DNA from: a virus
Taxonomy: Duplodnaviria; Heunggongvirae; Uroviricota; Caudoviricetes
Reading direction: 5' to 3' (one strand)
Virus record (IMG/VR): IMGVR_UViG_2925891887_000006
Coordinates: 1-51,857 of that record
Length of the DNA: 51,857 nucleotides
Shown: positions 1,938 to 19,966 of the stretch, in pieces
Layout of the letters: every line of letters begins with the position of its first letter
Position numbering within the stretch: position 1 is the first letter of the stretch
Program-made: the position numbers and the translations under genes
The notes under the pieces: model-generated
What the model saw: the letters and a program-made list of their open reading frames with translations, nothing else
Databases searched by the model: none
Told to the model about the DNA's origin: nothing

Positions 1938-1957
1938 TACGTGGGCGTTTTTTCTAA

Positions 1958-2787: not shown

Positions 2788-3527
2788 ACTGCTTTCTCCT
2801 TCTCAGCAAGTTCCTGACGAACCTTTATTTTATGCATAGCTGCCGGAGAGAGTTGATTACTGAAATCCAGACGCGCCGCATAATCCGGGGCAACTCCCGC
2901 CAGTTTAAACACCGGGTCCTGTTCAGGCATCGCATCGTTAGCCAGAGCCGGTCTGGTGATATGTTTATGAATAAAGTCTTTCAGCACTGTGTCCGGGTCA
3001 TTAACTGAATTCACCACACCCACAACGGCACTGGCTTCCCGGCCCATTGTGGATTTAAGCAGGCTCAGCGTCTGAATAAGCGCTTTTCCATGCGACTGCA
3101 TAAAATCTTCCCAGATTTGTTTTGCGCGAATATCTACAAGGATGTTATGCGCGTGGATATACTTTCCGGCTAATTCCGCAGCTTTCTGCGGCAAAAGTGC
3201 ATTTTCGCTTTCCTGAGCCGCCAGCAGCTCATCAAAATCCTCAAGCGTTTCTCGTCCCAGCGCAATTTCCGTGCGCAGTTTTTTCATTTCCTTTGAGACC
3301 ACGCCCTGACTTTCACGAAACAGCGTGCGCCACTCCTCATTCAGTGTGTTCGTCGTGGCTTCCATTTCAGCGCGACGCTGGCGGATTGTCGCAATATTAT
3401 CCGCTGCCGCTTTCTGCTGACGACGTGCTTCAAGCCATGCGTTTCTGGCTGTGTTCATGGTTTCCAGTGCCCGCTGCGTTACAGCCGGAAAAGTGGAAAG
3501 GTTGTTATTCACTGCGGTGTTGTTCAT
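2784..3527 (-). CDS. sid: Sid-like capsid size-determination (external scaffold) protein
   Basis: 247 aa, coiled-coil-like; EEWRTLFRESQGVVS resembles P4 Sid as recalled; position upstream of psu. Confidence 0.5.
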   Translation of the reverse strand: MNNTAVNNNLSTFPAVTQRALETMNTARNAWLEARRQQKAAADNIATIRQRRAEMEATTNTLNEEWRTLFRESQGVVSKEMKKLRTEIALGRETLEDFDELLAAQESENALLPQKAAELAGKYIHAHNILVDIRAKQIWEDFMQSHGKALIQTLSLLKSTMGREASAVVGVVNSVNDPDTVLKDFIHKHITRPALANDAMPEQDPVFKLAGVAPDYAARLDFSNQLSPAAMHKIKVRQELAEKEKAV

Positions 3528-3706
3528 GACTTCTCCTGTCGGGGTGGTTAGTTACGTCAATTGTGTCGTGGCTGACACAAGCACACTATCGGTGCTCAGT
3601 GTGTGGTGGCTGGCACAACGGGCGCTTGCGGTTATTCCGACGTGGCTATGAAAGCCAGCCAGATAAAAATGCCCACTGTTTCAGTCTGCTTTATGTCCCT
3701 GATGCG

Positions 3707-3894
3707 GTGGAACAGGTGAAACATGTGTTACACCTTTGTTTTATAAAGCATTTATATACACTGCACCGGTGGAACATCGCGGGTAACAAGGTGGAACAGC
3801 GGATTGGCTGGCGTTACATCTGTTCCACCTCACTATTTCAGAAGGTGGAACAGGTTCAGCCCTGTAAAATACGGTTGTTCCACCTGTTTCACCT
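3707..3894. repeat. Alpha-binding octamer iteron cluster (crr/ori-like): GGTGGAACA / TGTTCCACC, at least 6 copies in both orientations
   Basis: Copies at 3707, 3768, 3790, 3844 (plus) and 3821, 3877, 3886 (minus, last one TGTTTCACC variant), immediately downstream of the alpha gene. Confidence 0.65.
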
Positions 3895-3927
3895 GTTACC
3901 CTTAATAAATAAGACTCACGCAAAGTC

Positions 3928-6600
3928 TTAACCCGGCACCTCGCTGTTGAAGACATAGAGCCTGCGGGGATTCATCTCTGGCGGGCGAATGGTTGTCTGG
4001 AGTTTGCCATCAGTGGAGGGCAGCAGGTATCCACGATCTGCGCACAGACGCGCCACCTTGCGCGGGTCAAATCCCCTGCAGATTTCTTTCCAGCCGGACG
4101 GCATGACATAGAACGTAGTGACAGCTTCCGTGCCCTGCGCGGTACTGCCTTTCTCCACCCTGCGCCAGCCCACCATATTGCCGGGGCGGTTGCGCTCGTC
4201 ATACCAGTCTGCAAAGCGGCTGTACTGATTCGCGGTAAAGAAACTGCGAACCTGCTCCAGTGCGGCGATATCTTCCTGATTGGCGGTGTGCCCGCGATCT
4301 TTCAGCCATGCGTTCAGGCAGACGCGGGTTGCCCGCAGTGCTTCACCCTCAGGCCAGCCGGTGATACCCAGACGGGTTGCCAGTTCACCTGCCATCGCCA
4401 CCAGTGCAAAGCGGTTCACAGCCCGTCCCACCTGATTGCCTGCATCTTTCGGAGTCAGGGCGGCAGCATATTCCTTCATCAGCGATTTTGCCTGTGCCGT
4501 TAGTCCGTTAAGATCAGCGGTCAGTGCTTTCAGCCACTCCCGGAACGGCGAACCGTAGTAGCAGGACGTGGCCCATTCAAGATGCTCTGCCAGAGCCTTG
4601 CCGCTGTCGAAGCCGTGCAGCTCCTCAAAAACGCCAAACTTCCCGGAATCGCTGGGGATCTGGATCATCCTGACTTCCATCCCGGCAAAAGTACGCTCAC
4701 CGGCCTTTGCCGCATGTTCGGTCAGAGACAATTCGCCAGTTGAAAAGAACAACAGGCGCCACTGCTTACGGGTACGCAGCTCACCGTCCGTACCGGCACG
4801 GCCCTTGCCCTGACCGTTTGCCAGCATGTAGGCGATATTGCCTGCCTCGCGTCCGTCAACTTCCCGGATCTCATCAAGCATCATGGCGGCATCGTTGCGG
4901 CGGCTGGCGCATCCCTCCAGCGCGTTGCCGGTGGCCCGCCATGTCTGCCAGTAGTCAGGCCCGCCGCAGACGGAGGTTGCCGCTTTCATGGTGGTAGTCT
5001 TACCGTCTGTCGATTCCCCTTTGAGGTGGTAGCCGCCGCCGTCCATACCCACCAGCCGTAACAGTGGTGCAGCAAAGGCCAGGCTGACAGCAAATGCCAC
5101 GCGGGAGTTGCCGGTACAGTAGCGGGATACATGCTCCCGCCATTCCTCTGTTGTGCCCGACACGCGGAAATCACGCCCCTGCACGGAAGTGGTCTGGAGA
5201 ATGACACCCTCTGCACCTTCACCGCTGACCTCATCCTGCAGGACGTAAACCTGACCATGCCAGCCAGTACGACTGACGCAGGTCACGCGGCGTTCCGGTT
5301 TACACAGTGAGATATATTCCATCAGGCGTGCGCGTGCCTCACCGGTGGTGCTGATATAAGACAGCCCGTTAACCAGCAGTACCCGGCGCAGTTCCTCACC
5401 ACTGCCGCTCAGCATTTCCATCGGCATCGCCCAGCGGCGACACTCACCCCACGTATCTTCCCATTCCAGCAGTCGTCCGAAGTTACCGCCATCGGCATCG
5501 CAGGTGATTGCCGTCACACGCAGCGGGCTGCATATTTTGACGTTCTGGATCTCCGTCTCACCGTTGCGCTGTACCTGCTTTTCATACCAGAGATATTCCT
5601 GGGTAAGACGGAACCCGTGCGGCAGTTGCGTGCGGCCTTCCCCGCACAGTACCAGACCGTTGCGAAAGGCTTCACGGGCACGGGTAATACCATGCTCCCG
5701 ATGAAAGTCATTCCAGTCAGCCTTAATCTCTCCTGGTGGCAGCGTCATCCAGCCGCCAACAGATTTTGCCGCCCGTTCAGCAAAGGCTCTGCCGGGATTC
5801 TCCCCCCCGTCCTGAAAATCGTTATCACCGGCGATGATAATTTTTACCTCAGGCCAGCGTGCCCGCAGCGACTGCGCCACATTGGGCAGATTGCCCGCAG
5901 ATATGGCAGCCACTACGCATCCGGCAGTGAGCTGGCTTACCGTCAGCGCCGTAGCGTAACCTTCGGTAATCACCACCTGTACCGGTGGTTCAGACGGTAA
6001 CGGGCTGAGCGACACAAACGCGCCTTTCATCGTGCTGCCGGGCAGTATGCTTTTTTCACCCGTCGGGGCGATAAGCTGTGCACCGGTCACGGCTCCGGTA
6101 TTGGTCGTGAGTGGTAACAGCAGGGAACCGGCAGGAAAATCCTTACCGCTGATATGCTGCACGCTTCCGGTCAGAGAGGCCGGGTATCCGGCGAACCCTT
6201 TTCCTGTCAGATAGGCGCTTTCTCCCGTGTGGCTCTCTTTCATCAGCGCCGCCACGGTAAGACCCATGTCGCGTTTAGGGGCTTTTTGTCTGGCAGGCTT
6301 AACAGGCAGTTCCTGCACATCCGGCACATTAAGCATCTGCGCCACCTCCTGCGCAGCCTTTCTGACGCTGTAACCGGTTACGAGCTTAACCAGATCCAGA
6401 CCGTCACCATTGCCACACTGGCTGCAGATCCACGTCCCGCGCCCGTCAAGGTCATCAAGGCGAAAACGATCCTTGCCCCCACATTTCGGGCAGGGACCGT
6501 GCCTGCCGTTTTCAGGTACATCAATACGCAGCATCTGCAGAATAACGGGCCATTTCCCCCGCGCGGCGGCTGAAATCTGCGTAACCGTCTGTATTGTCAT
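3928..6600 (-). CDS. P4 alpha-type primase/helicase (N-terminal zinc ribbon, primase, P-loop helicase)
   Basis: 890 aa; CPKCGG...CSQCG zinc-binding motif; GESTDGKTT Walker A. Confidence 0.9.
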   Translation of the reverse strand: MTIQTVTQISAAARGKWPVILQMLRIDVPENGRHGPCPKCGGKDRFRLDDLDGRGTWICSQCGNGDGLDLVKLVTGYSVRKAAQEVAQMLNVPDVQELPVKPARQKAPKRDMGLTVAALMKESHTGESAYLTGKGFAGYPASLTGSVQHISGKDFPAGSLLLPLTTNTGAVTGAQLIAPTGEKSILPGSTMKGAFVSLSPLPSEPPVQVVITEGYATALTVSQLTAGCVVAAISAGNLPNVAQSLRARWPEVKIIIAGDNDFQDGGENPGRAFAERAAKSVGGWMTLPPGEIKADWNDFHREHGITRAREAFRNGLVLCGEGRTQLPHGFRLTQEYLWYEKQVQRNGETEIQNVKICSPLRVTAITCDADGGNFGRLLEWEDTWGECRRWAMPMEMLSGSGEELRRVLLVNGLSYISTTGEARARLMEYISLCKPERRVTCVSRTGWHGQVYVLQDEVSGEGAEGVILQTTSVQGRDFRVSGTTEEWREHVSRYCTGNSRVAFAVSLAFAAPLLRLVGMDGGGYHLKGESTDGKTTTMKAATSVCGGPDYWQTWRATGNALEGCASRRNDAAMMLDEIREVDGREAGNIAYMLANGQGKGRAGTDGELRTRKQWRLLFFSTGELSLTEHAAKAGERTFAGMEVRMIQIPSDSGKFGVFEELHGFDSGKALAEHLEWATSCYYGSPFREWLKALTADLNGLTAQAKSLMKEYAAALTPKDAGNQVGRAVNRFALVAMAGELATRLGITGWPEGEALRATRVCLNAWLKDRGHTANQEDIAALEQVRSFFTANQYSRFADWYDERNRPGNMVGWRRVEKGSTAQGTEAVTTFYVMPSGWKEICRGFDPRKVARLCADRGYLLPSTDGKLQTTIRPPEMNPRRLYVFNSEVPG

Positions 6601-6980
6601 ACTTCCCCCTGATACAACGTCACACCGGTACTGCAGCAGACATCAAAGGCCGCCGGAAGCGTGCGGTACATCTCCGCCATTACTTCACAACCGCGCGCGG
6701 TCAGTACCGGCGGCGCGGTCAGCAGTGACGGCTCCAGCATGTCAGTCAGCAGTGCCAGCGCGGCAGCGGCGCCCTGTGCTTCGCCGTACTCGTTAATCAG
6801 TGCGCACTCGATATGCAGCGCAATGGCCATTTCAATACGCTCCACCGTCAGGCTGTGCGGACCATACTGATCATTGCCAGTTTCGTTCAGCATTTTCTGC
6901 CGCCATGCTGAAGCAATAGCCCACCGGTAAAGCGCGGTGGTCATTTCTGCCGGGAAAATGGAAACCTGCGGCTGGTTCAT
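6597..6980 (-). CDS. Hypothetical protein, satellite early operon
   Basis: 127-aa ORF translationally coupled to alpha (4-nt overlap). Confidence 0.5.
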   Translation of the reverse strand: MNQPQVSIFPAEMTTALYRWAIASAWRQKMLNETGNDQYGPHSLTVERIEMAIALHIECALINEYGEAQGAAAALALLTDMLEPSLLTAPPVLTARGCEVMAEMYRTLPAAFDVCCSTGVTLYQGEV

Positions 6981-7261
6981 CTGGCACCTCCTTCAATCAG
7001 TGCGCAGCTGTGTGCAATATCCGTCAAATCTGCCCGCAGGTACTCCATCAGCGCGGCGACACCAGGCGCAAAGCCTGCGTCCAGTGCTCCGGCCTGAGAC
7101 GGGTATTCAGAAAAGAGAAGCTGGAGCATGTCGCAGGCATTTCTTGCGCGGGTCAGCTTTCCGAAACCGTCCTCTGACAACCCATAGGCAAAAGCACCGG
7201 TATTGTGTTTTTCAGGCAAAGTCTGGCCCTGAGCACCGTTGTGCCCGTTTGAAATATTCAT
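6977..7261 (-). CDS. Hypothetical protein, satellite early operon (epsilon position)
   Basis: 94-aa ORF overlapping the downstream gene start. Confidence 0.5.
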   Translation of the reverse strand: MNISNGHNGAQGQTLPEKHNTGAFAYGLSEDGFGKLTRARNACDMLQLLFSEYPSQAGALDAGFAPGVAALMEYLRADLTDIAHSCALIEGGAR

Positions 7262-7292
7262 TGTGGATTACTCCGTTTTCAGCGGTGTTTTG

Positions 7293-7652
7293 TCAGAGAA
7301 ACTTTGAATAGTGACCGTCATCAGGCTCAGCAGAACACCATATGCTACGCTCCCGCCAGCGGATAAATAGCACAGACGGATGCAGTGTCAGCGGGCCGGA
7401 ACCACTACCGCCTGCAGGAGCTGGTGCAGGCTTAAAGAGCGGTACATCAAACAGGCGCGTATATCGCTGTTCAAACCATGCCAGAGGGCAGGAAGAAAGC
7501 TGGTTGTCGCTGTCATGACGTATCAGCACTTCACAGCTGAATTCAGGATTAACCAGCGCCACAGAGGGCGAGGCTTCTATTAATCGGATAATCGTGACCG
7601 TCCAGCCACGTTCATGCTGCCAGCGTTCGCCGGGATGCGGATAATTACGCAT
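7293..7652 (-). CDS. Hypothetical protein, satellite early operon
   Basis: ORF-track frame; start placed at internal Met (MRNYPHPGERW) to limit overlap. Confidence 0.4.
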   Translation of the reverse strand: MRNYPHPGERWQHERGWTVTIIRLIEASPSVALVNPEFSCEVLIRHDSDNQLSSCPLAWFEQRYTRLFDVPLFKPAPAPAGGSGSGPLTLHPSVLFIRWRERSIWCSAEPDDGHYSKFL

Positions 7653-7821
7653 GTTCACCTCCGCAGGGAATGCGCCCGGCAAAGCTCAGTACATAGTCCG
7701 GGGCAAGTCTGCGCCGCGCTGATCGCTCGTTATCTGCGGTGATCCTTAACATTACCGGACGGGCATTACGTTGACTGCGGTTGATCGCCGCAAATAACCA
7801 GGTACACTTCTGTTTAGCCAT
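7645..7821 (-). CDS. Small basic protein, Icd/Kil-like (possible host cell-division inhibitor)
   Basis: 58 aa from internal Met MAKQKCTWLF; first gene of the leftward satellite operon. Confidence 0.45.
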   Translation of the reverse strand: MAKQKCTWLFAAINRSQRNARPVMLRITADNERSARRRLAPDYVLSFAGRIPCGGEHA

Positions 7822-7937
7822 CTTCGTTACCTCATATAACGTGCTGGTCAGACGCCTCGGTGGTGCTGCAAACACTCCGGGGCGTTGCTATTTTGTTTTT
7901 CTGTGTGTAATGTGTCATTACACATAAATACATTACA

Positions 7938-8132
7938 ATGGGTGTAATTGACGTGTCAACACACAAAAATGAAAGACGTGGGAATCCGCCATTCCAGTTC
8001 CGACTTGACCCTGAACTGCGTGAACTGATGGAACAAGCACAACAGCAGGATGGCGATGAATCGCTAGCGGCTTGGATCAAGCGCATTCTACGCAAAGAGT
8101 TACAAAGCCGAGGTTTAGAACCAAAGAATTGA
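7938..8132 (+). CDS. Ribbon-helix-helix (Arc/CopG-like) DNA-binding protein, candidate satellite repressor
   Basis: 64 aa; FQFRLDPELRELMEQA...AWIKRILRKEL fits a beta-strand plus two helices; divergent from the early operon, start embedded in palindromes. Confidence 0.5.
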   Translation: MGVIDVSTHKNERRGNPPFQFRLDPELRELMEQAQQQDGDESLAAWIKRILRKELQSRGLEPKN

Positions 8133-8181
8133 TTAATACGTTGGGGAGGCTTTTTTCTCCCCAGCTTTGTTAATATTGTCA

Positions 8182-8397
8182 TTACACTACTTCCTCCAAT
8201 CCTGCTGATTGAGCTTTAACCCACTGCCTAATTTCTTGTGCATCGTAAACAGATACCCGTTTTGAAATGCGTATAGATTTGGGAAATTCAGGATTGTTCT
8301 TTTCCCAGCGCCAGAGAGTAACCGTACTTATTTGCAAAAAGTCAGCAGTAGCTCGTGGGCGGGCATGTCCAGTGATAGGATAAGTTTTTAATGTCAT
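8182..8397 (-). CDS. alpA: AlpA/Vis-family transcriptional regulator
   Basis: 71 aa with HTH; typical partner of P4-type integrases. Confidence 0.8.
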   Translation of the reverse strand: MTLKTYPITGHARPRATADFLQISTVTLWRWEKNNPEFPKSIRISKRVSVYDAQEIRQWVKAQSAGLEEVV

Positions 8398-8499
8398 GAA
8401 ATTACCTGCCGTGTTATGTAATGAACACGGCAGATACTATGGGGATATCAAAATGCTGTGAAGGTAGTGTAATCAACTCTACCTGTAGATTGTTTCAGT

Positions 8500-9381
8500 C
8501 TACCCCTTTTGTTTTAATCCCGCATGATTAACCGCTAATCGTAATTTTCTTAAGATTTCTTGTTCATTAGTGATAAATATTGGAGGTAGCTCTCCTAAAT
8601 GTTTAATTATGGCGTTAGTCCACTTTTCAGGACTTATCTCTTTTCTTTCACCACGACATTCGCTTGGGTATTTTGCTAATATATATATGGCTGCATTTAA
8701 TAACCCCCCCCTATTTTTTGCATGATGCTCAGCAGTGTTATTTAATCGCTTGGGGATTTTAGGTTCAGATGAAATTCTTTTCGTAAGTAAACTTGGCATA
8801 GGAATTCCAGTTTTTACTGATTTCCATATTAACTCTAAATCTCTTCGCATGATAAGAAGATCTTCAAATGGAATATCAATGACCTTATTTCCTTCATATG
8901 AGGCCGTTGCCATCAAAACATTATCTCGTATTTTTACCGGTTTAAGCCTGAATTCATAATCTGGATCTATAGCTAATCCATTTTTTATGTCACTTATCAT
9001 ATCATCGGCGTACCAAATACCACAGGCAAATCCTATAATTTGAAGCCCATTTTCAAAATGTTCAAAGGAGTCATCTTTAAGGTCATACCATATTGTTGAA
9101 AATTCCATCTCTAGTGATTGATTAGTTAATACGGGATGAATTAAGTCAATTTCCATTTTCTGATTTTTATAGAGGAAATTAACATTAAATCTAACTGCAA
9201 GTCCATCCGCCTTGAATGCGATATTAAAAGCGCCTATTTCGTATAGGTGTAATAAATCATCAATCTCGCATTCTAATAGTCTTGAAGCGCGTTCAAATGA
9301 ACAATATTCTAATGGTGGTATTTTTTTGTCAATCCATAGATTTCCTAAGAATATAGTTTCATTCTCTTTTGAATGCTGCAT
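8500..9381 (-). CDS. Hypothetical AT-rich 293-aa protein between int and alpA (accessory cargo)
   Basis: Long ORF, low GC versus flanking int and alpA, no recognisable motif. Confidence 0.6.
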   Translation of the reverse strand: MQHSKENETIFLGNLWIDKKIPPLEYCSFERASRLLECEIDDLLHLYEIGAFNIAFKADGLAVRFNVNFLYKNQKMEIDLIHPVLTNQSLEMEFSTIWYDLKDDSFEHFENGLQIIGFACGIWYADDMISDIKNGLAIDPDYEFRLKPVKIRDNVLMATASYEGNKVIDIPFEDLLIMRRDLELIWKSVKTGIPMPSLLTKRISSEPKIPKRLNNTAEHHAKNRGGLLNAAIYILAKYPSECRGERKEISPEKWTNAIIKHLGELPPIFITNEQEILRKLRLAVNHAGLKQKG

Positions 9382-9411
9382 TATGACCTCTGTTTTAAAT
9401 TATAAGAAAAT

Positions 9412-10746
9412 TTAATTGATAATGTTAATACCTGATAAGTCATAAGGAGCATGAAATTCGTCCTTATTTAGTTCCAGATAATTAGACCACCATTGCATCA
9501 TTCTGCGGCGTTCCTGCATGTGCTGCGCAAGATGCACATATGCTGCCCGCACTTCGTTTCTTTCTTGGTGACTCATCTGCCGTTCAACTGCATCGCGTGA
9601 CCAGAGTCCTGATTCGGTCAGTGCAGAGCAGGCCATCGCCCTGAACCCATGCAAGCAAACATCACTTTGAGTGTCGTAACCCATCGTTCGCAGTGCTTTA
9701 TTAACTGTGTTTTCGCTCATCGGTTTATATGGGTTGCTGTCACCGGGGAAAACCAGCAGATATTCACCACTGATTTTCCTTATATCCTCCAGTACCCCGA
9801 TAGCCTGACTAGATAGCGGGACATAATGAGCAGCCCCCATCTTTGCACCCCGCTCTGAGAATTTAACCCCTGCGATCTCTTCACGTTGTCCTGGTATCGT
9901 CCATAGCCCATTTTCAATGTCGATCTCCTCCCATCTGGCATGTCGTAGTTCGCTGGATCGCACAAAAGTGTGCAGGGAAAATAGAACTGCTAGGCGAGTC
10001 AATGGTCTTCCCGTGTAACTTCTCGTTTTCGCTAACAGTTCAGGTAAACGTTCGAGAGGTAGTGCGGGGCGATGTCGTACTTTGGGGGTCGTAATTGCAC
10101 CTTTTAGATCGTGGGCAGGGTTGTAATCGACAATTCCACGTTGCACGGCATAACGGAAGATGCTCGTCATAGTGGTTTTTACCCGGCTCGTTGTGGCACC
10201 AATTCCTTTCTCAGTCATCTCAACCAGCATCGGCATCAAGTCACGGGTTTTGAGCGTATCGATAGGCTTTGAACCGATGGCAGGAAAGAGGTGGTTTTCC
10301 ATTTCTCGGAGAATTTTTTTACGGGTGATCTCTTTCCACTCAGGATGCCCTATCGTTCTACTATGCCACTCTCTGGCAACACTCTCGAACGTGGGGGAAA
10401 TTGGGTCTTCCTTTTTGGGTTTCTTTGCTTCGCGAGGATCACGACCATCGGCTAGTAGTTGCCTGGCTTCATCACGCCGTTTCCGCGCTGTTGCAAGTGA
10501 GACATCTGGGTAGACCCCTAATGCCAATGTCACTTGTTTTCCATCAAAACGATAATTCATACGCCAGTATTTTCCACCAGTCTTTCGTACCAGTAGATAC
10601 AAACTCCCTCCATCGGTAAGTTTGTAATCATTGGTCTTCGGCTTGGCGTTTTCTATCTGTTTGGGGGAAAGCACATTAATGGCCATATCTGTACTCATTT
10701 TGGTAGATTGATGGTATCTGCATATCGAACTGGGGAATACCATCAC
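9412..10746 (-). CDS. int: Tyrosine integrase, P4-type
   Basis: 444-aa ORF (true start may be an internal Met); N-terminal arm-binding-like region and C-terminal catalytic region; adjacent to att core copy. Confidence 0.9.
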   Translation of the reverse strand: MMVFPSSICRYHQSTKMSTDMAINVLSPKQIENAKPKTNDYKLTDGGSLYLLVRKTGGKYWRMNYRFDGKQVTLALGVYPDVSLATARKRRDEARQLLADGRDPREAKKPKKEDPISPTFESVAREWHSRTIGHPEWKEITRKKILREMENHLFPAIGSKPIDTLKTRDLMPMLVEMTEKGIGATTSRVKTTMTSIFRYAVQRGIVDYNPAHDLKGAITTPKVRHRPALPLERLPELLAKTRSYTGRPLTRLAVLFSLHTFVRSSELRHARWEEIDIENGLWTIPGQREEIAGVKFSERGAKMGAAHYVPLSSQAIGVLEDIRKISGEYLLVFPGDSNPYKPMSENTVNKALRTMGYDTQSDVCLHGFRAMACSALTESGLWSRDAVERQMSHQERNEVRAAYVHLAQHMQERRRMMQWWSNYLELNKDEFHAPYDLSGINIIN

Positions 10747-10872
10747 TTATACCATCACGAGGTTGTAATGTCATGAAATTAACTGAAATGAAAATCAGGC
10801 CGATTCGGTGATAACTTACTGTTTTTTTAAGTGGTTATGTAATGAAGTGAAATGTAGAGAAAGGTCTTTAAA

Positions 10873-10885
10873 GTGTCCCCTGCAG
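10873..10885. repeat. att core copy (GTGTCCCCTGCAG) at the satellite/prophage junction
   Basis: 13/13 identical to the 3' end of argW at 50777..50789. Confidence 0.6.
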
Positions 10886-10958
10886 ACATCTACTTGACGC
10901 GGCAGGGGATTGATTGGAATGGTGTTTTTTAGATGTGAAAAATATTTTACCCGCTATT

Positions 10959-11159
10959 TTACCCATTGGCGCGGCTTAAGAGCTTATTTTTGAATTCACA
11001 ATGGTCACGATATAACCATCTTGCTCGACCGTGGATAACTTTGGCTTTAGGCAGGTCGCCGGACTTAATCCGGTCGTAGATGAAGGTTTTACCGAAGCCA
11101 GTATCAGCCATGATGAATTTCAAATCAACCAGGGAATCAGGCTGTAGTTCGTGTTGCAT
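10959..11159 (-). CDS. torI: TorI-type excisionase (Xis)
   Basis: 66 aa; matches E. coli TorI as recalled; sits at the prophage end opposite int. Confidence 0.75.
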   Translation of the reverse strand: MQHELQPDSLVDLKFIMADTGFGKTFIYDRIKSGDLPKAKVIHGRARWLYRDHCEFKNKLLSRANG

Positions 11160-11200
11160 GAGTGCTATCTCCGAATAGGGAATCGAACCTGCAAATCAGG

Positions 11201-11221
11201 CAATAAAAAACCGCCATCAGG
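11201..11221 (-). terminator. Putative intrinsic terminator
   Basis: Short GC hairpin followed by T6 on the minus strand, just after the 54-aa gene. Confidence 0.35.
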
Positions 11222-11386
11222 CGTCTTGGTGTTCTTTCAGTTCTTCAATTCGAATATTGGTTACGTCTGCATGCGCTATCTGCGCCCATATCATCCAGTG
11301 GTTATAGCAGTCGTTGATGTTCTCGGCTTCGATAACTCTGTTGAATGGTTCTCCATTCCATTCACCTGTGACTCGGAAGTGCATTT
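11222..11386 (-). CDS. Small hypothetical phage protein (54 aa, MHFRVTGEWNGEPF...)
   Basis: Hand-translated; below the ORF-track size cutoff; GGAG 9 nt upstream of ATG. Confidence 0.45.
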
Positions 11387-11542
11387 ATCATCTCCATAAA
11401 ACAAAACCCGCCGTAGCGAGTTCAGATAAAAGAAATCCCCGCGAGTGCGAGGATTGTTATTGTCTTTGCTTCGTGCATTTGTCGCACTTTCTGCACCATC
11501 CAGATAGGCACATCCGTCCGCAATTAACACATATAGGCCACA

Positions 11543-11986
11543 TCATTTTTCCTCTTTTGGTTTATGAATCTGAACTGGCAAGTTGTAAGTTTGGCTTACA
11601 GGTTGGTTACTCTGAAGCATGGCGGCGCGGCAGGCGTTCCAGCCATCAACATAATCAAACGTATTGCTATCGTCTGGCTCGATTTCATCTGGCACTATCA
11701 GCACCGGCTGGACGGTGACATTGGCAAAGGCAGCACGCAACCCGGTTTTAATTTCTTCGATTTCATCAGAGCCAAGCGATGAGTCAGAAAGCGCATGGTG
11801 AAATGCGTAAGCCATGTCGTCGTTGATTTCTACAGGCACACTATCAGCCTTGCGGCGCTCCTGTAGCTCGCGCAGAGCCGCTACAACATAATGGCTATTG
11901 TGCTGGTCAGCCCACAGAATGAGCCGAATCAACGTTGCATTTGAAACGTATTCGTCTGTTAGTTTGCTATTGGTAAAAGTGGTCAT
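11543..11986 (-). CDS. Hypothetical early-left protein
   Basis: 147-aa ORF overlapping the upstream HNH stop. Confidence 0.55.
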   Translation of the reverse strand: MTTFTNSKLTDEYVSNATLIRLILWADQHNSHYVVAALRELQERRKADSVPVEINDDMAYAFHHALSDSSLGSDEIEEIKTGLRAAFANVTVQPVLIVPDEIEPDDSNTFDYVDGWNACRAAMLQSNQPVSQTYNLPVQIHKPKEEK

Positions 11987-12348
11987 GCCGTAGCCCCTTC
12001 TTGATATTTTTCAAACCAGAACACAACTGGGTCAGATTTCATTTCAACCAATCCCATACGAACCAGCGCTTTGCCTTTCCCGGACGCAAGGAATTCACGA
12101 CGACCATCACTGATAATTCGCCGATAATCTTCCAGACTACTGCAATGCTTGTGCAGATTGCATGGGTGGCATGCCGGAACCATGTTGGATATATCGTCAC
12201 GTTCCTGGTGAAGCATATTTCCATCAAAACGGATGACCGGTTTTACATGGTCTGCATGCCACTTTTCGCCAAGTTCGCAGCCGCAATAAGCGCAGCGACC
12301 ACCGAACTTCATGCGCAGTTCTGCGCGTTGTTTTTTCGTCAGTGACAT
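11983..12348 (-). CDS. HNH endonuclease
   Basis: CAYCG...HADHVKP...CHPCN motif. Confidence 0.75.
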   Translation of the reverse strand: MSLTKKQRAELRMKFGGRCAYCGCELGEKWHADHVKPVIRFDGNMLHQERDDISNMVPACHPCNLHKHCSSLEDYRRIISDGRREFLASGKGKALVRMGLVEMKSDPVVFWFEKYQEGATA

Positions 12349-12349
12349 A

Positions 12350-12568
12350 TCAGCTTTCCTTATACGGATTAATTTTATTGTGTAGTGTGTTGAATGGTCC
12401 CCATATCACATCGGTATATAACTCAATAATAGGTTCAATTATTTTCACGATTATCCAGACAAAAATTAGCGGGGATATCGGTATCATCAACACGATAAAC
12501 AGAATGAGAAACAAAAATTCTGTCGCTCTACTTTTTCGCGGATATTCTTTTCTGAATAATGTAGTCAT
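12350..12568 (-). CDS. Small membrane protein
   Basis: 72 aa with one long hydrophobic segment; AT-rich. Confidence 0.45.
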   Translation of the reverse strand: MTTLFRKEYPRKSRATEFLFLILFIVLMIPISPLIFVWIIVKIIEPIIELYTDVIWGPFNTLHNKINPYKES

Positions 12569-12600
12569 TTCTTACCGCCCTTTCGGGCGGCCTCCTGACA

Positions 12601-12813
12601 TTAATCGTTGTGATAACTCATAGCTTCATTTGCAGCATCAACTGGATCAACATCCCACCAGCAATAATTTGGTTCGACTCCTTCAGGTGTCCACGGCTCT
12701 AATTCATTTTTTGCCGCATTCTCGTCGCCAGTAATTTTAAAAATCTGCTCAGAAAATTTCCTCACCCACTCGTTATATTTTTCCGCATTAATGGTTTTCT
12801 GTGTATTTAACAT
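12601..12813 (-). CDS. Hypothetical protein
   Basis: 70-aa ORF, AT-rich. Confidence 0.45.
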   Translation of the reverse strand: MLNTQKTINAEKYNEWVRKFSEQIFKITGDENAAKNELEPWTPEGVEPNYCWWDVDPVDAANEAMSYHND

Positions 12814-12863
12814 AGATATACCTCCAGTTAAGGATTTGATTTTATTTACAGTGCTAAATTTAT

Positions 12864-13220
12864 TTATTCAGTTCTGGATTTCGTCGCCCTGCGTATCCGC
12901 GCTTTCGCGTTACGCTCAATCTGAATTAACTTTTCTATATTTTTCCGTCTTTCCTGTTCCTCCTGGCGCAATAGCCTTACATCATCTGCCAGTCTGGTTT
13001 CTCTTTTCGCCACAGAGAGCATCCAGTCAAACGGCTCCACAACTGCACCGCAGATTTTACAGCGGACCTGACGCTCTTTTTCGTCAACCCGGACAGAAGC
13101 GTGATGGCAGTATGGTCTTTCCGATGGCTCATAAAGAAAATTAACCTGATTACGTGGGTCATCCTCTTTTACCGGAAATAAAACAATATTACTTAACTCA
13201 TCTTCTGGTTTTATTTCCAC
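12864..13220 (-). CDS. Hypothetical protein with putative zinc ribbon
   Basis: 118 aa; C-x-H...CKIC pattern. Confidence 0.5.
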   Translation of the reverse strand: MEIKPEDELSNIVLFPVKEDDPRNQVNFLYEPSERPYCHHASVRVDEKERQVRCKICGAVVEPFDWMLSVAKRETRLADDVRLLRQEEQERRKNIEKLIQIERNAKARIRRATKSRTE

Positions 13221-13221
13221 G

Positions 13222-13755
13222 TCACTCTCCTTTGATGCGAATGCCAGCGACGCCGTGATTCATGTGGAATCCAAGCCTTGCCTGAGCTTCCTCTCTTGCT
13301 CTTACAGCATCAGAGAATTTAATGAAGCTACCAATGTGCTTGTGCTTACCATTTTCGCGTATGTAGGCAATCCATCTTTTATGGCTAGGATTCCAGGTAA
13401 CACCTGTGCAGCCTCCAATGTTGTCCTTTCGTATCGAAGAGTTCTTTTGGTTTCCCTGATTATCAACAAGGCGCAGATTCTCTATTCGGTTATCAGTTCG
13501 GTCGTGGTTAATGTGATCAACCTGCATGTCTGTTGGTATATCGCCATGAACAAGACACCACGCTAATCTATGAGCCTTATATCGACTCCCTTTGATTTGA
13601 ATTTCTACATAACCTTGAGCGCTGATTCCTCCGGCCCGCTTCCCTGCAATTCGAGTATTCCAAACCTTGCATGTGCGGCTGTCAGAAAACGAACTTGGTT
13701 CGCGCTTCTTCCAGAAAAAAATCCTTCCCATCGTAGTGAAGGTGTTCCTCAACAA
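13222..13755 (-). CDS. HNH homing-endonuclease-like protein with AP2-like domain
   Basis: HRLAW...DHINHDRTDNRIENLR; paralogue of CDS 25099..25623. Confidence 0.75.
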   Translation of the reverse strand: MLRNTFTTMGRIFFWKKREPSSFSDSRTCKVWNTRIAGKRAGGISAQGYVEIQIKGSRYKAHRLAWCLVHGDIPTDMQVDHINHDRTDNRIENLRLVDNQGNQKNSSIRKDNIGGCTGVTWNPSHKRWIAYIRENGKHKHIGSFIKFSDAVRAREEAQARLGFHMNHGVAGIRIKGE

Positions 13756-13984
13756 ATTCCTTTGTGATTACCTTTGCTTTACGCTGCGCCTGTTTGTCGA
13801 TGTTGCTCACTGTTTGCCTCCTTTGCGCCACATCGCATTCAGATATTTGTTTTGATTCACTGACGGAAAAGAATTTCTCTTAAGCAATTCCTCTCTCGGT
13901 GGCATTGGCTTTACGCGTTGGCGAATAATCATTTCTGCCGGAAGAATGCCGGGATTGTATGCAAGTCCTCTCATGGTAAATTCC

Positions 13985-14281
13985 TCAGTCATTACTGATA
14001 GCGCCATAGCGTGAGCGGTAATTACGCAGGCGCGGGTCGATATATTCAGGGAAGTGGGTATATGTGGCTTTGCGGAATGGTCGGATTGATGTTTCGTTTA
14101 TTCGGTCTTTTTCCTGTTTTTCTGCGAGTTGTATATCGCGTCGGTACTTCCGTTCTGCTTTTGTTTCTGGTGTCAGGGCAAGAAACGTGTCGAAAATGTT
14201 TTTGATATTTTCCAGCACCTCCGACTTGGAGCTACCGGAGCAGTTGCGCGGGTCATCCGCACCATACAGAGGCGCTGGCAT
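13985..14281 (-). CDS. Hypothetical protein
   Basis: 98-aa ORF. Confidence 0.45.
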
Positions 14282-14304
14282 AATGGGAGCCTTATTTTCA
14301 GTAA

Positions 14305-14892
14305 TCAGAAAGGAGGGTAATCGTTCTGGCTGTAACCATAATCATCTGCATGATTCTGGCTTACGTTTTTAGAGCGATTGTCTTTATCTTTGAGGCTGGC
14401 AACCATGTTGGCGATAGTTTCTGGTTGCTTGCCTTCCGCCTTTTCTTTAAGGGTTTGACCTGTTTGTGCAATAAACGGGATGCGTATTTCCATCTGGTAG
14501 CTGTCTGCGCCAGTCTTTTTGTTTGTGGTTAATACTTTCTGGAGCACTAACCCGATTTTCTTTCCATGAAATTCAGGAGCAACAAATTTACTGGCGGAAA
14601 CCATATGTTGCGTTAATTGTCCAATCCCGGCACACCCCATTATGGCGTGGACGACATTTGCGCCAAATTTATTTTCCGTTCCGTCATTTTTCTGAACACA
14701 AACGCTAAGATATTGGATTTTACGTCCGTCGTCGGATTCGCCAGAAAACTCAATAAATTTGGCTCCTTTTTCTGATTGCTTTAGTTCTGCTTCAGTAATG
14801 GTAATGATATGAGCGCCAGTTTCGTTAATAAAACCACCTTGCCCTGCGGTCAGTGCTGCTTCTTCGTTATAAGTAAAAATCACGTTGCTCAT
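14305..14892 (-). CDS. DUF669-like SSB-type protein with acidic C-terminal tip (DYPPF)
   Basis: 195 aa; translationally coupled to the Sak4-like ATPase; C-terminus resembles the SSB tail. Confidence 0.55.
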   Translation of the reverse strand: MSNVIFTYNEEAALTAGQGGFINETGAHIITITEAELKQSEKGAKFIEFSGESDDGRKIQYLSVCVQKNDGTENKFGANVVHAIMGCAGIGQLTQHMVSASKFVAPEFHGKKIGLVLQKVLTTNKKTGADSYQMEIRIPFIAQTGQTLKEKAEGKQPETIANMVASLKDKDNRSKNVSQNHADDYGYSQNDYPPF

Positions 14893-15569
14893 GCGGCGTT
14901 TTCCTTAATTTGATGAACATTATTGATGCCGTAGTAATCACAAACAGTGGCATCGACGAAAGAGAGATCGTTATCAATCTCATTGGAGCCAAACATTCCC
15001 ATTGGGGATTTAACAGTGTCTGCACCGTTGTTTTTTGTGGTGAAAAAGAACTGGTCATCACGGGTAAGGGTGCGAAGAACTATAGTAAACATGCCTTCGA
15101 CAGTGATTTTCTCGTCCAGCATTTTGCCGATAGTTTTCATTTTCACGCGCCCCATAGGGGTTTCTTCGGTGTGTGCAAGAAAATAGACTCTCAGGTCATC
15201 AGGTGCATCCTGTGCAGCCTTAATCACCTCCCATGCGTGGCGGCCTATCTCAGTAAATTTATCAAACGATTTTTCTTCTGAGCGGCGCATAAACTCATTG
15301 CTCATCACATACTGGAAGTCATCAACAATAACGATTCTTTTCCCGTATTCGTGAGCACGCTTAATTACGGCAACTATTACGTCCCATTTGTCAGTGGTAA
15401 CTACGGTTCCTTTTTTTGCTCTGGCATCCCATGCAAGCCAGTCTTTTGATTTAAATGGTAGCGGCTTGCCTATTGGTTTTATAAGTATTGCTTCCTCTGG
15501 ATTGATATTTCTCATGCTGGTTGATTTTCCGGTGCCAGATTCACCGAGTATTAATGTCGCAGTTCCCAT
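14889..15569 (-). CDS. Sak4-like RecA-fold ATPase (single-strand annealing/recombination)
   Basis: Walker A GESGTGKS near the N-terminus. Confidence 0.75.
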   Translation of the reverse strand: MGTATLILGESGTGKSTSMRNINPEEAILIKPIGKPLPFKSKDWLAWDARAKKGTVVTTDKWDVIVAVIKRAHEYGKRIVIVDDFQYVMSNEFMRRSEEKSFDKFTEIGRHAWEVIKAAQDAPDDLRVYFLAHTEETPMGRVKMKTIGKMLDEKITVEGMFTIVLRTLTRDDQFFFTTKNNGADTVKSPMGMFGSNEIDNDLSFVDATVCDYYGINNVHQIKENAA

Positions 15570-15577
15570 AATTTGCC

Positions 15578-15778
15578 TCAGAATGGTAATTCGGATGGGA
15601 CGGAAAGAAACTCGCGCTCATTCATTCGCTCTCTTTGAGCCTGCCATAAACAAAGTTGTTTCTTTGATTTATCTCCCGCTTTACGCCAGTAACGAGCCTC
15701 AGCAATGTGATATTCTCTTTTTAATCGACTTAATTCTGGAGTTTTCGCCAGTTCTACCGGAATCATTTTGACCTCCAT
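15578..15778 (-). CDS. Hypothetical protein
   Basis: 66-aa ORF. Confidence 0.4.
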   Translation of the reverse strand: MEVKMIPVELAKTPELSRLKREYHIAEARYWRKAGDKSKKQLCLWQAQRERMNEREFLSVPSELPF

Positions 15779-15868
15779 TTTCTGTAGGCTTCGATGGCCT
15801 CACGAAACATCTTTTCATCGCCAATAAAAGTGGCGATAGTGAATTTAGTCTGGATAGCCATAAGTGTT

Positions 15869-16009
15869 TTATCCATTTTTGGGAACTCCTGGCTGATTAA
15901 GTACGTCGATGAGTCGTTTCCATCCGTCACGTAATTTGCGGGTGATTCGTTCAAGTAAAGATTCGGAAGGGCAGCCAGCAACAGGCCACCCTGCAATGGC
16001 ATATTGCAT
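15869..16009 (-). CDS. Small hypothetical protein (46 aa, MQYAIAGWPV...)
   Basis: AAGGAG 7 nt upstream of the internal ATG; stop overlaps the next small ORF. Confidence 0.4.
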   Translation of the reverse strand: MQYAIAGWPVAGCPSESLLERITRKLRDGWKRLIDVLNQPGVPKNG

Positions 16010-16070
16010 GGTGTGCTCCTTATTTATACATAACGAAAACGCCTCGAGTGAAGCGTTATTGGTATGCATA

Positions 16071-16094
16071 TAAAAAGGCCCTCACACTGGAGGG
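16071..16094 (-). terminator. Intrinsic terminator inside the early-left operon
   Basis: GCCCTC-cagtgt-GAGGGC hairpin followed by CTTTTTAT on the minus strand. Confidence 0.55.
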
Positions 16095-16190
16095 CAAAGA
16101 AGATTTCCAATAATCAGAACAAGTCGGCTCCTGTTTAGTCACGAGCGACATTGCTCCGTGTATTCACTCGTTGGAATGAATACGCAGTGC

Positions 16191-16379
16191 TTATTCGTCA
16201 TGCATTTCAGGTAATTCTTCGTATTCGACGCCCCATACGAGTTTACACCAACTAACTCGCTCATATCTTTTACAGAAATCAGACCACATAACTTGTGTTC
16301 CATCATGGTTTGTTATTACTTCTGTAATATCACCAACACTAACAAAACTGGTATTAGAAGCAGTTATTTTTACTTTCAT
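16191..16379 (-). CDS. Hypothetical protein
   Basis: 62-aa ORF. Confidence 0.4.
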   Translation of the reverse strand: MKVKITASNTSFVSVGDITEVITNHDGTQVMWSDFCKRYERVSWCKLVWGVEYEELPEMHDE

Positions 16380-16675
16380 TATTCATCACCTATGGCTTTT
16401 TTGATAGCTTCGAGAGCCTTATTAACAGCTCCATACCATTCTGGATATGTTGTCTTTGTTCTATTTTTGGTTTGCTTAAGTAATAACTGAAGTGCTTCGA
16501 GAAGGTCAGGTGCTGCCGCTATTAGATTGGCATCTTCAATGCATTGAACTTCCTCACAGATTGCAATATACGAACGCCAGCCTGTGCCATTTTCAAGTGA
16601 GTCTGCCTGGATGATTTTAATCTCATCGCCATCCATCATTATTTCCCACTTACCTTCAGTACCTTTAAATTCCAT
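16379..16675 (-). CDS. Hypothetical protein
   Basis: 98-aa ORF. Confidence 0.5.
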   Translation of the reverse strand: MEFKGTEGKWEIMMDGDEIKIIQADSLENGTGWRSYIAICEEVQCIEDANLIAAAPDLLEALQLLLKQTKNRTKTTYPEWYGAVNKALEAIKKAIGDE

Positions 16676-16714
16676 GTTAGCCTCTGTTGTTTATGCCAAA
16701 AATAAAGGCCACCA

Positions 16715-16966
16715 TCAGGCAGCCTTGTTGTAAATGTTGCAGGTATCAAGTAAGTAATTAGATGGAGCGCCATAAATTATGAATTCATCGTTTGTCGGGT
16801 CCATCTCCATCTCTTGGCCTATTGCCATTCTTGCGTCAGTGTCATCAGAGGCGAAGCATAAAACAGCCCACGCACCCATTGTTTTAAAAAGAACTGCAAT
16901 TGGCTGTGGTTTTACTGAATTTGCGTTAGCGCGAAAATCACAAATCGCACTTTCATGAAACTCCAT
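16715..16966 (-). CDS. Hypothetical protein
   Basis: 83-aa ORF; hairpin plus T-run at its 3' end. Confidence 0.5.
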   Translation of the reverse strand: MEFHESAICDFRANANSVKPQPIAVLFKTMGAWAVLCFASDDTDARMAIGQEMEMDPTNDEFIIYGAPSNYLLDTCNIYNKAA

Positions 16967-17020
16967 ATATCACCTCAAATAAGTGGTTTGCTGCGAAAGT
17001 AAATACGCTTAAGTTACCTG

Positions 17021-17158
17021 TTATTTATCCCACCAAGTTCCGTATTTATCTATCCAGTTACACCAATCATCGACACTCCATTTTGTTGTGTCGCATTTTG
17101 GCAATTGGCATGAATATCTACCTTCTTTGTAAAGTCGGCGTTTGACTTTCTTGAGCAT
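17021..17158 (-). CDS. Small Cys/Trp-rich protein (45 aa)
   Basis: Hand-translated MLKKVKRRLYKEGRYSCQLPKCDTTKW... Confidence 0.35.
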   Translation of the reverse strand: MLKKVKRRLYKEGRYSCQLPKCDTTKWSVDDWCNWIDKYGTWWDK

Positions 17159-17706: not shown

Positions 17707-17708
17707 AA

Positions 17709-18336: not shown

Positions 18337-18383
18337 TGCCAATCTTTTCCGTTTGGCTTCCAGCGTCCTGCTGATGGCTAAAG

Positions 18384-19960: not shown

Positions 19961-19966
19961 TAACAC

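Follow-up and report, generated by a model that had tools for sequence, protein, structure and literature searches.

Evidence for a tandem array of a P4-family satellite and a P22-like prophage at the tRNA gene argW

Introduction

The tRNA gene argW is known as a highly variable hot spot beside the dsd/csc region (PMC3032704). Among the elements described at this site is KplE1 (CPS-53) of Escherichia coli K-12, a 10-kb remnant whose IntS/TorI integration module is of the same kind as those of HK620, Sf6 and CUS-3. In K-12 each end of the module carries a 16-nt core, published as CTGCAGGGGACACCAT, and a conserved TAAA motif is common to the P' sites (PMC2951348). The satellite P4 targets leuX and has the order int-cII-(beta,gop)-cos-(psu,delta,sid), divergent from the alpha operon, with its cargo between cos and int. 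In the hotspots of P4-like elements, variable cargo adjoins cos (PMC9122126). When several elements accumulate at one site, each integration regenerates the core on either side of the insert, and one of these copies is then the target of a second element (PMC7192596).

Here we describe a stretch of viral DNA of 51,857 nucleotides (the window) in which elements related to both of these systems lie next to each other beside argW. We conclude, with a probability of roughly 0.9, that most of a two-unit tandem array is contained in positions 1-50789, with a P4-family satellite and a P22-like phage inserted at this gene.

Results

Two units that also occur alone

About 60 complete genomes carry the satellite with 80% or more of its length covered, and most of the matches listed stop exactly at position 10885. 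In the satellite-only genomes that were inspected argW follows directly after this position, and five more junctions of this type were present in metagenome contigs. The IntS/TorI phage module occurs alone in K-12 and many other genomes, where homology begins exactly at position 10873. In addition, the empty site, with the distal flank fused to argW, exists as one 100%-identical piece in many genomes, 1415 genomes covering at least 80% of it. The initial annotation had read the locus as sequential insertion into a single attB and had proposed a comparison with empty argW loci; the finding of each unit alone and of the empty site in other E. coli agrees with that reading. As it had also stated, both integrase genes lie on the tRNA-proximal side of their own element.

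The two units are contiguous, and their integrases have the same domain architecture (Arm-DNA-bind_3, Phage_int_M and Phage_integrase in the satellite enzyme) with 30% identity, as might be expected if, for example, a phage had captured a P4-like module to become a single composite element with two integrases; the 13-bp sequence shared by the two boundaries would then be an internal relic. This explanation is hardly credible, since each unit is found alone at argW with the break in homology exactly at the 13-mer and since each has arm-type sites of its own on both ends. Moreover, the sizes of 11.4 and 39.9 kb are near those of P4 (11.6 kb) and of the phages IME10 and APC_JM3.2 (39.6-39.8 kb).

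The P4-family satellite

The unit distal to the tRNA gene is about 11.4 kb long, extending from about position -541 to 10885, and has no annotated structural genes. Its order is att-int-orf293-alpA...alpha-sid-psu-delta-cos-cargo-att, and the features of both units are listed in Table 1. The core P4-like set is present, comprising int, the alpha primase, sid, psu, delta and alpA/vis (including PF05930, PF04606, PF07455 and DUF927/Toprim). Identity to the P4 proteins is 52% for Int, 37% over 321 aa for alpha and 38% for orf106, while the Delta-like protein is half-size and 45% identical to half of P4 Delta, with NF007241 below its cutoff. The Sid-like protein also matches Pfam Psu (1.8e-9), and an Icd homologue lies in the early region. 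Relatedness to P4 was seen at the protein level only, a megablast search of the phage collection with the satellite giving no match. The core genes and the size of about 11.4 kb agree with the initial description of a P4-like satellite, with the refinement that the likeness to P4 is distant and the gene order different. Homologues of the Sid, Psu and Delta named in that description are indeed encoded, together with the alpha-type primase, within positions 1958-6600, only distantly like those of P4.

No epsilon homologue was detected by BLASTP against P4 epsilon at E<=0.01, two small hypothetical ORFs lying in that place, and the 293-aa ORF had no match in Pfam, NCBIfam or PADLOC. The cargo ORF, which occupies the variable "hotspot" position of P4-type elements, showed a weak PADLOC match to DzbB (2e-9, C-terminal half only) and a sub-threshold Pfam match to MauJ, with no match in an NCBIfam search.

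The cos-like site is the best local alignment to the P4 cos junction and has the same relative position and orientation, with just 11/19 positions identical to the P2/P4 cohesive end; a strict P2/P4 cos 19-mer is absent at up to three mismatches. The block is kept in the divergent EC1515 satellite, where conservation stops right after it. Comparison of the delta-to-cargo spacer with phages gave a single, uninformative 31-nt match in a Yersinia phage and no matching helper cos.

Helper-dependent packaging into small P2-type capsids is putative for this satellite. The initial remark that the window has no P2-like helper is true though uninformative: no P2-like genes were found in the window, the large prophage being P22-like. 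In 22AR0322, the closest complete genome with the tandem, a P2-family capsid match lies elsewhere in the genome, so that the absence of a helper from the window is unremarkable.

Table 1. Positions of the features of the satellite, the prophage and argW in the window
Feature	Position	Strand	Basis or remark
Cargo ORF, 401 aa (ORF) / 398 aa (PGAP)	1-1206	-	Between cos-like site and distal att
cos-like sequence GCGAAGCGGGCA|GGCGTGCGGGGCTGTGCGC	1731-1761	-	Downstream of delta, upstream of cargo ORF
Delta-like (Ogr/Delta zinc finger) activator, 90 aa, single-domain	1958-2230	-	PF04606
Psu homologue, 183 aa	2236-2787	-	Pfam Psu 9e-44; 30% identity to P4 Psu
Sid-like capsid-size protein, 247 aa	2784-3527	-	24% identity to P4 Sid over 226 aa, 1e-11
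alpha-type primase/helicase, 890 aa	3928-6600	-	Zn_Ribbon_Prim, Toprim_3, DUF927 domains
Satellite early region	6597-8397	-	DUF5375 protein (P4 orf106-like), two hypothetical ORFs, Icd-like peptide, AlpA/Vis-type HTH protein
AlpA/Vis-type HTH protein, 71 aa	8182-8397	-	PF05930 Phage_AlpA
293-aa ORF	8500-9381	-	Between int and AlpA-like gene
Satellite integrase, 424 aa from PGAP start	9412-10686	-	ORF runs to 10746 from GTG
Satellite arm-type sites ATACCATCA	10709-10757	.	Inverted at 10709; 12-bp-spaced pair at 10737 and 10749
Hybrid att site	10873-10885	+	Left arm, satellite integrase-side; right arm, prophage TorI-side
Two TTTTACCC repeats 12 bp apart, candidate IntS arm-type sites	10945-10964	+	TorI side
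torI, prophage excisionase (recombination directionality factor), 66 aa	10959-11159	-	100% identical to K-12 TorI
P22-like (Lederbergvirus-type) prophage body	11160-49455	.	Nucleotide matches and PGAP annotation of closest relative
16-nt fragment identical to argW 50790-50805 (T arm)	11179-11194	+	20 nt upstream of torI start codon
intS, prophage integrase, 385 aa	49456-50613	-	100% identical to K-12 IntS
Full 16-nt KplE1-type core ATGGTGTCCCCTGCAG	50774-50789	+	argW 3' end
argW, tRNA-Arg(CCU), intact target gene	50775-50849	-	ARAGORN (tRNA-Arg(CCT))

The P22-like prophage

The tRNA-proximal unit (10873-50789, 39.9 kb) is a full-length P22-like genome. It carries a lambdoid early region with recombination and anti-RecBCD genes, then immunity, replication, a nin region and lysis genes, and P22-type genes for the terminase, portal, scaffold, coat, ejection proteins and tailspike. 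Over the late genes, phages IME10 and APC_JM3.2 match it at about 96% nucleotide identity. The genes for IntS and TorI are at opposite ends of the prophage, with intS abutting argW. The TTTTACCC repeats on the TorI side are candidate arm-type sites of IntS. The T-arm fragment upstream of torI, whose counterpart in argW (50790-50805) is contiguous with the core, is also present upstream of torI in K-12 KplE1.

In P22-type headful packaging, DNA is taken up starting at the terminase genes and continuing across the late genes. We considered lateral transduction of the satellite by this phage and rejected it: the terminase and late genes are oriented so as to lead to intS, argW and yfdC and not to the satellite.

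The 13-mer is the overlap of two cores

The sequence GTGTCCCCTGCAG has exactly two matches in the window, at 10873-10885 and 50777-50789, both on the + strand, against a mean of 0.01 matches in shuffled sequence, where two were reached in 0 of 100 shuffles. No third copy occurs inside the window with up to two mismatches. The proximal copy equals the last 13 nt of argW minus the terminal CA, covering the T-stem 3' strand, the acceptor 3' strand, the discriminator and the first C of CCA; the distal copy lies between the satellite integrase gene and torI. The initial annotation had placed the two copies at the 3' end of argW and between the P4-type int and the TorI-type xis, and the exact match, the integrase domains and the 100% identity of TorI agree with this. 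It had also named the possibility that the 13-mer was a piece of a longer unrelated conserved block, which is ruled out because the sequence next to the 13-mer diverges at once on both sides.

The 13 bp were first taken as the att core. They are truly shared; the core as such is a different matter, since from the sequences the 13 bp are the intersection of a 16-bp IntS/TorI core and a 21-bp satellite core. Positions 10873-10885 form the boundary of both elements, satellite-only genomes matching up to 10885 and phage-only genomes from 10873. Because the integrase-side arm of the satellite is joined here to the TorI-side arm of the phage, this middle copy keeps only 13 bp. For IntS, the proximal core copy is 16/16 and the distal copy has 13 contiguous nt (14/16), so that a duplicated 16-nt core is not seen. 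This shortfall comes from the satellite arm, or the target used, and does not speak against membership of the KplE1-type module.

The target of the satellite integrase would be a block identical to argW over as much as 21 bp (GTGTCCCCTGCAGGAATCGAA), with ATACCATCA arm sites on either side. This 9-mer occurs in five copies in 35 kb, all beside the two att copies of the satellite. On the integrase side an inverted copy and a 12-bp-spaced pair lie about 115 bp from the core, and on the other side a pair lies about 52 bp from it, so that the layout is almost superimposable on that of P4 attP, where the arm repeats are at 112 and 53 bp.

A satellite att copy had been predicted to the left of the window. 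For the left flank we relied on relatives that share the satellite at 100% identity over 1-11200. Every relative with the identical satellite carries a third copy, TGGTGTCCC(C)TGCAGGAATCGAA, which lies between cscB and the 401-aa ORF, about 540 bp to the left of the start of the window. A direct repeat of the tRNA 3' end is thus present at every unit boundary, with two copies in the window and the third in relatives. In most relatives this distal copy has a 1-nt deletion in its C run, which has three C in L001, L002, L006 and L010-L012, four in two strains and five in one. Part of this variation in C-run length could be homopolymer sequencing error.

Order of insertion

Each integration would have duplicated the 3' end of argW. 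In the proposed first step, the satellite would integrate and displace the native 3' end with its CCA far to the left, leaving argW without an encoded CCA. In the second step, the P22-like phage would enter the regenerated argW by a crossover inside the 13 bp, and the CCA would be restored from the phage arm. In the window argW is 75 nt long with CCA, the same as in K-12, whereas the argW of satellite-only genomes is 73 nt long without CCA, and the TGG (= CCA) of the proximal core comes from the phage-borne arm. We had regarded this TGG/CCA pattern as proof that the satellite was first, and dropped it, since the reverse order gives the same junctions; the order of insertion therefore rests on population evidence.

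On that evidence, rather than from its sequence, the satellite was very probably the first to insert. One 100%-identical satellite adjoins different prophages, and the junction is 97.9-100% identical in the nine complete-genome records that carry it. The genome 22AR0322 is identical to the window over 1-11200 only, its prophage being just mosaically related to that of the window, and no complete genome was found to cover positions 9000-24000. In the metagenome contig L019 another island also lies between this satellite and argW.

If the P22-like phage had been first at argW, and the satellite had later entered the distal (secondary) att copy of the phage, the product would be identical base for base provided that the satellite crossover fell inside the shared 13 bp, as we reason from the junction sequences, and secondary sites in arrays are known targets (PMC7192596). 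However, the satellite is 100% conserved and mostly occurs without a phage, while the phages next to it vary. In a lysogen, the intact argW should also be the preferred target of an incoming satellite, yet the reverse-order junction that this would give was present in 0 of 5426 genomes. Furthermore, the distal copy of the phage lacks the 8 bp GAATCGAA of the 21-bp identity block of the satellite, and, if other tRNA-targeting P4-type integrases are a guide, the missing part probably contains the region of crossover. Insertion of the phage first is thus improbable.

Mobility of the two units

When IntS and TorI excise the phage, the satellite-only state should be restored, with the predicted phage attP junction ...GATAAATGGTGTCCCCTGCAGACATC...; the predicted attP junction of the satellite is ...TTTAAAGTGTCCCCTGCAGGAATCGAATCATTTT.... 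The tRNA-side half-core of the satellite (GAATCGAA, T loop) is now 40 kb from the integrase-side arm, and therefore excision of the satellite is probably impaired while the prophage is resident. A hierarchical "lock", in which satellite excision would need prior excision of the phage, combined with opposite CCA effects of the two elements on maturation of an AGG-decoding tRNA, is a tentative suggestion that we consider rather unlikely.

The 1-nt deletion in the distal att copy of most strains means that the satellite may no longer excise precisely, and the satellite could instead be a fixed, immobile remnant (a domesticated island), making the array a live phage beside a fossil. Also consistent with this view are the IS insertions in some satellite copies, a cos unlike that of P2/P4, and the 100% identity over many strains, as in vertical inheritance. 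The excised attP junction of the satellite was not found among viral and metagenome contigs, a weak negative, as assemblies rarely capture such forms. In contrast, every satellite gene that can be recognised is an intact ORF, none being flagged as a pseudogene, and the cos-like block and arm sites are conserved with an otherwise about 80% identical satellite, which points to selection on mobility functions; the differences in the C run may in part be sequencing error of the kind mentioned above. We judge a fossil satellite possible but doubtful.

Discussion

The prophage carries the same IntS and TorI (100% to K-12) as the KplE1-type module and the same 16-nt core at the tRNA gene, with intS, torI and the argW T-arm fragment placed in the same way. 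It differs from K-12 KplE1 in being a full-length genome and not a remnant, in its distal core of 13 contiguous nt (14/16), and in its target, an argW regenerated by the satellite. The satellite shares with P4 its size of about 11.4 kb, the lack of structural genes, integration in the 3' end of a tRNA gene, and variable cargo beside a cos-like site. Unlike P4, it targets argW and not leuX, has no nucleotide similarity to P4 at the megablast level, and carries its P4-homologous ORFs all on one strand, with psu preceding delta. In addition, its att lies between cargo and int, neither an epsilon nor a cI-RNA homologue was detected, and the cohesive-end motif is 11/19.

The tandem arrays at tRNA genes in the Islander and TIGER descriptions form by the same mechanism, with no difference in principle. 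The argW locus is a clear, if commonplace, case of elements stacked at a tRNA gene that is an integration hot spot; all its parts are of known kinds, and current concepts are unchanged by it. We found no prior description of this pairing, a P4-family satellite with a P22-like phage of non-helper type, or of the CCA being lost and then restored.

The main consequence is for annotation, in which the 51-kb insertion is to be split at 10873-10885 into satellite and prophage, each with its integrase and att sites. On the tentative suggestion above, the lock would link unrelated mobile elements, and the satellite would remove the encoded CCA from argW and the phage would repair it. The satellite-only argW also raises the question whether a tRNA gene without an encoded CCA stays fully functional. 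Overall, the natural series of empty, satellite-only, phage-only and tandem loci suits the study of integrases on hybrid att sites, and the same series could show whether a resident prophage immobilises a neighbouring satellite.

The two att copies in the window

Over the 51,857 bp of the window the 13-mer GTGTCCCCTGCAG has exactly two plus-strand matches (10873-10885 and 50777-50789), against a chance expectation of 0.01 matches on average (none of 100 dinucleotide-preserving shuffles reached two); the window holds no further copy with up to two mismatches. The single tRNA detected by ARAGORN is tRNA-Arg(CCT) (Table), and the second match therefore spans the T-stem 3' strand, the acceptor 3' strand, the discriminator and the first C of CCA, in line with the initial annotation, which had read it as the 3' end of argW and had placed the other copy between a P4-type int, here to its left, and a TorI-type xis, to its right. 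The satellite integrase and IntS share 30% identity. Since the flanks of the two copies are unrelated to each other on both sides, the 13-mer is not the visible portion of a longer shared block.

Table. Features of the satellite and prophage at argW (window coordinates unless a locus of a satellite-bearing relative, L001, L007, L008 or L013, is named)
Feature	Position	Strand	Remarks
Cargo ORF, 401 aa	1-1206	-	AT-rich
cos-like motif	~1731-1761	-	Position equivalent to P4's; 11/19 positions match the P2/P4 cohesive end
Delta homologue			45% identity to P4 Delta; single half-size domain
Psu homologue			30% identity to P4 Psu
Sid homologue			24% identity to P4 Sid
alpha homologue			37% identity to P4 alpha
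orf106 homologue			38% identity to P4 orf106
293-aa ORF	8500-9381	-	
Satellite integrase	9412-10686	-	Tyrosine integrase; Arm-DNA-bind_3, Phage_int_M, Phage_integrase domains; 52% identical to P4 Int
ATACCATCA, integrase side	10709 (inverted); 10737 and 10749 (12-bp-spaced pair)		~115 bp from core
ATACCATCA, far side			12-bp-spaced pair, ~52 bp beyond distal att copy
torI	10959-11159	-	66 codons; product 100% identical to K-12 TorI
GGAATCGAACCTGCAA	11179-11194		20 nt upstream of torI start codon
GGTTGTCCAAC-type 11-bp repeats	20904-21010		Two groups ~66 bp apart
922-aa ORF	42723-45491		33-bp tandem duplication at 43827-43892, perfect but one
intS	49456-50613	-	Adjoins argW; 100% identical to K-12 IntS
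argW, tRNA-Arg(CCT)	50775-50849	-	
Displaced argW end, C-run variants	L001 11457-11478; L007/L008 ~601-623; L013		TGTCCCC at 604 in L007/L008

A P4-family satellite as the distal unit

The distal unit belongs to the P4 family of satellites: it encodes distant homologues of P4 proteins, together with an Icd homologue and an AlpA/Vis-type HTH protein. The Sid, Psu and Delta genes named in the initial annotation are present, with the refinement that they are distant from those of P4 and that the gene order, att-int-orf293-alpA...alpha-sid-psu-delta-(cos-like)-cargo-att, is unlike P4's. All P4-homologous ORFs lie on one strand, there are no structural genes, and megablast of the satellite against phage records gave no similarity to any.

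The block strongly conserved with a divergent sister satellite ends at the cos-like motif and variable cargo starts directly after it, in agreement with the "hotspot next to cos" published for P4-like elements (PMC9122126). The 401-aa cargo ORF in this hotspot matches DzbB (Dazbog), a PADLOC model, only weakly and in its C-terminal part, and MauJ below threshold, and is thus a candidate anti-phage gene; the exact protein occurs in 1936 blocks of the assembly index. The 293-aa ORF, between int and the AlpA-like gene, has no Pfam, NCBIfam or PADLOC match, and a different, similar-sized ORF at this place in the satellite of E. coli EC1515 suggests a second variable slot.

A third att copy left of the window in relatives

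E. coli 22AR0322 carries a 100% identical copy of the satellite (window 1-11200), at least 80% of which is present in about 60 complete genomes. The satellite's second att copy had been predicted to lie to the left, and we found TGGTGTCCCTGCAGGAATCGAA about 540 bp left of window position 1 in 22AR0322, strain 5444 and three further assemblies, between cscB and the 401-aa ORF. The native gene's TGG (CCA) is part of TGGTGTCCCTGCAGGAATCGAA, which marks this copy as the original argW 3' end, now displaced; the match to argW extends to GAATCGAA, giving the satellite an identity block of up to 21 bp. In this copy the C run comprises three C in most strains and in the divergent EC1515 satellite, four in TCM_B_2 and CE0021a, and five in one assembly, which could reflect decay of the displaced fragment, a difference borne by attP or, in part, homopolymer sequencing error.

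Arm-type sites lend independent support to the satellite att copies: within 35 kb there are five instances of the 9-mer ATACCATCA, every one beside one of these two copies. The annotated P4 attP has the same layout, with an inverted repeat at the start of int, a 12-bp pair at a distance of 112 bp from the core and another pair at 53 bp on its opposite side. The far-side pair also occurs in the EC1515 satellite.

At locus L001 the csc sucrose genes stand in for dsdC/dsdX, and the ~440 bp between cscB and the displaced argW end (11016-11456) contain a DUF4942 gene fragment; this stretch looks like what an earlier island left behind at this hot spot.

A P22-like prophage as the proximal unit

The unit next to argW is a prophage of P22-like type that carries a KplE1 module. 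Its late region, with terminase, portal, coat, ejection proteins and tailspike, is ~96% identical to phages IME10 and APC_JM3.2. In the closest annotated relative the lambdoid early region is complete and the morphogenesis genes are of P22 type, none being flagged as a pseudogene. The IntS/TorI recombination module is common to HK620, Sf6 and CUS-3, and the published KplE1 core, CTGCAGGGGACACCAT, matches the 16-nt repeat ATGGTGTCCCCTGCAG that flanks the remnant prophage KplE1/CPS-53 in K-12 (PMC2951348). The tRNA-side copy in the window is the full 16 nt (50774-50789), whereas the far copy (10873-10885) is preceded by AAA rather than ATG.

The 16-nt GGAATCGAACCTGCAA beside torI equals the argW T arm (50790-50805) and is kept in K-12 KplE1 (locus L004, 12276-12291). 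Because GGAATCGAACCTGCAA is contiguous with the 16-nt core in argW, torI with its flanks (~290 bp) looks like an insertion that splits a 31-nt 3' segment of argW. The GGTTGTCCAAC-type repeats, clustered within the prophage replication gene, look like lambdoid origin iterons.

Single units, empty sites and other tandems

Among the matches listed for satellite-bearing genomes, most stop exactly at 10885; in the satellite-only genomes inspected the rest of argW follows directly, and metagenome contigs supply five more satellite-argW junctions. In genomes with only an IntS/TorI prophage the match begins exactly at 10873. The comparison with empty loci proposed in the initial annotation was made with a synthetic fusion of the distal flank straight to argW, which is a single 100%-identical piece in many genomes and at least 80% covered in 1415. 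The third copy and the unrelated 13-mer flanks thus leave the proposed tandem standing.

A torI-bearing prophage likewise forms a tandem with the sister satellite of EC1515 (L006, 2744-14290; junction ~82% identical), where the middle att copy has only 12 nt in common (TGTCCCCTGCAG). The sister satellite is without psu, and carries a DUF4062 cargo gene and, near its distal end, a gene annotated "phage portal protein". In metagenome contig ERZ1023658 NODE-2710 (L019, ~3022-3099), what comes next after the satellite's integrase-side arm and full 21-bp core is another element instead of argW; it has paired GTGCCCC motifs (P4-like arm repeats) and carries both a serine recombinase gene and a large helicase-like ORF. 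This island is a second kind of tandem partner, using the same 21-bp site.

Nothing P2-like is present in the window, as first noted. A composite of the tandem junction and 530 nt of P2 gene N, searched against complete genomes, matched two places in 22AR0322 and the junction alone one, indicating a P2-family capsid gene elsewhere in that genome; no such gene was found in strain 44 or in three tandem-bearing ETEC strains. Earlier work had already recorded P4-like elements in hosts that lack a resident P2, for example strain 042.

Order of insertion

By themselves, the junction sequences are compatible with either order of insertion, since the same three sites would arise if a satellite recombined within the 13 bp of the phage's distal copy. 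Indirect evidence favours the satellite having come first. It is 100% conserved and in most cases stands without a phage, yet the prophages of the window (11200-49400) and of 22AR0322 (NZ_CP195467.1) are only mosaically related, with blocks of 86-99% identity and unrelated segments between. The tandem junction occurs in nine complete-genome records (12 including divergent satellites), with a phage arm 97.9-100% identical, and the reverse-order junction in none of 5426 genomes. In the metagenome contig L019, too, satellite and argW are separated by an island other than this phage, the one described above, whose P4-like arm repeats are of the GGGGGCA type. Integrases of the P4 type that target tRNA genes usually exchange strands in the T-loop part; the phage's distal copy is without GAATCGAA, the T-loop part of the satellite's block, which would be a further point for satellite-first insertion.

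Consequences for argW and the satellite

That tandem arrays form at tRNA genes, and by what mechanism, is established (PMC7192596); argW is known as a variable hot spot beside csc and dsd genes (PMC3032704), and P4-like satellites are abundant (PMC8628076). The array described here is a well-resolved instance of this known phenomenon, and our results support the initial interpretation, refined as to the phage core, the satellite's remoteness from P4 and its gene order, and the order of insertion.

In satellite-only strains argW ends in GGGGACAC, with TTT next to it, and the gene call, 73 nt long, lacks CCA (L002, 18873-18945), whereas in the window and in K-12 it has 75 nt with CCA, the TGG being supplied by the phage arm. 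From these sequences, the phage arm would restore in the tandem state the TGG (CCA) lost in satellite-only strains. The integrase-side arm of the satellite now abuts CTGCAG followed by ACATCTAC rather than by GAATCGAA. If the T-loop segment is required for strand exchange, satellite excision would be impossible until IntS and TorI remove the phage.
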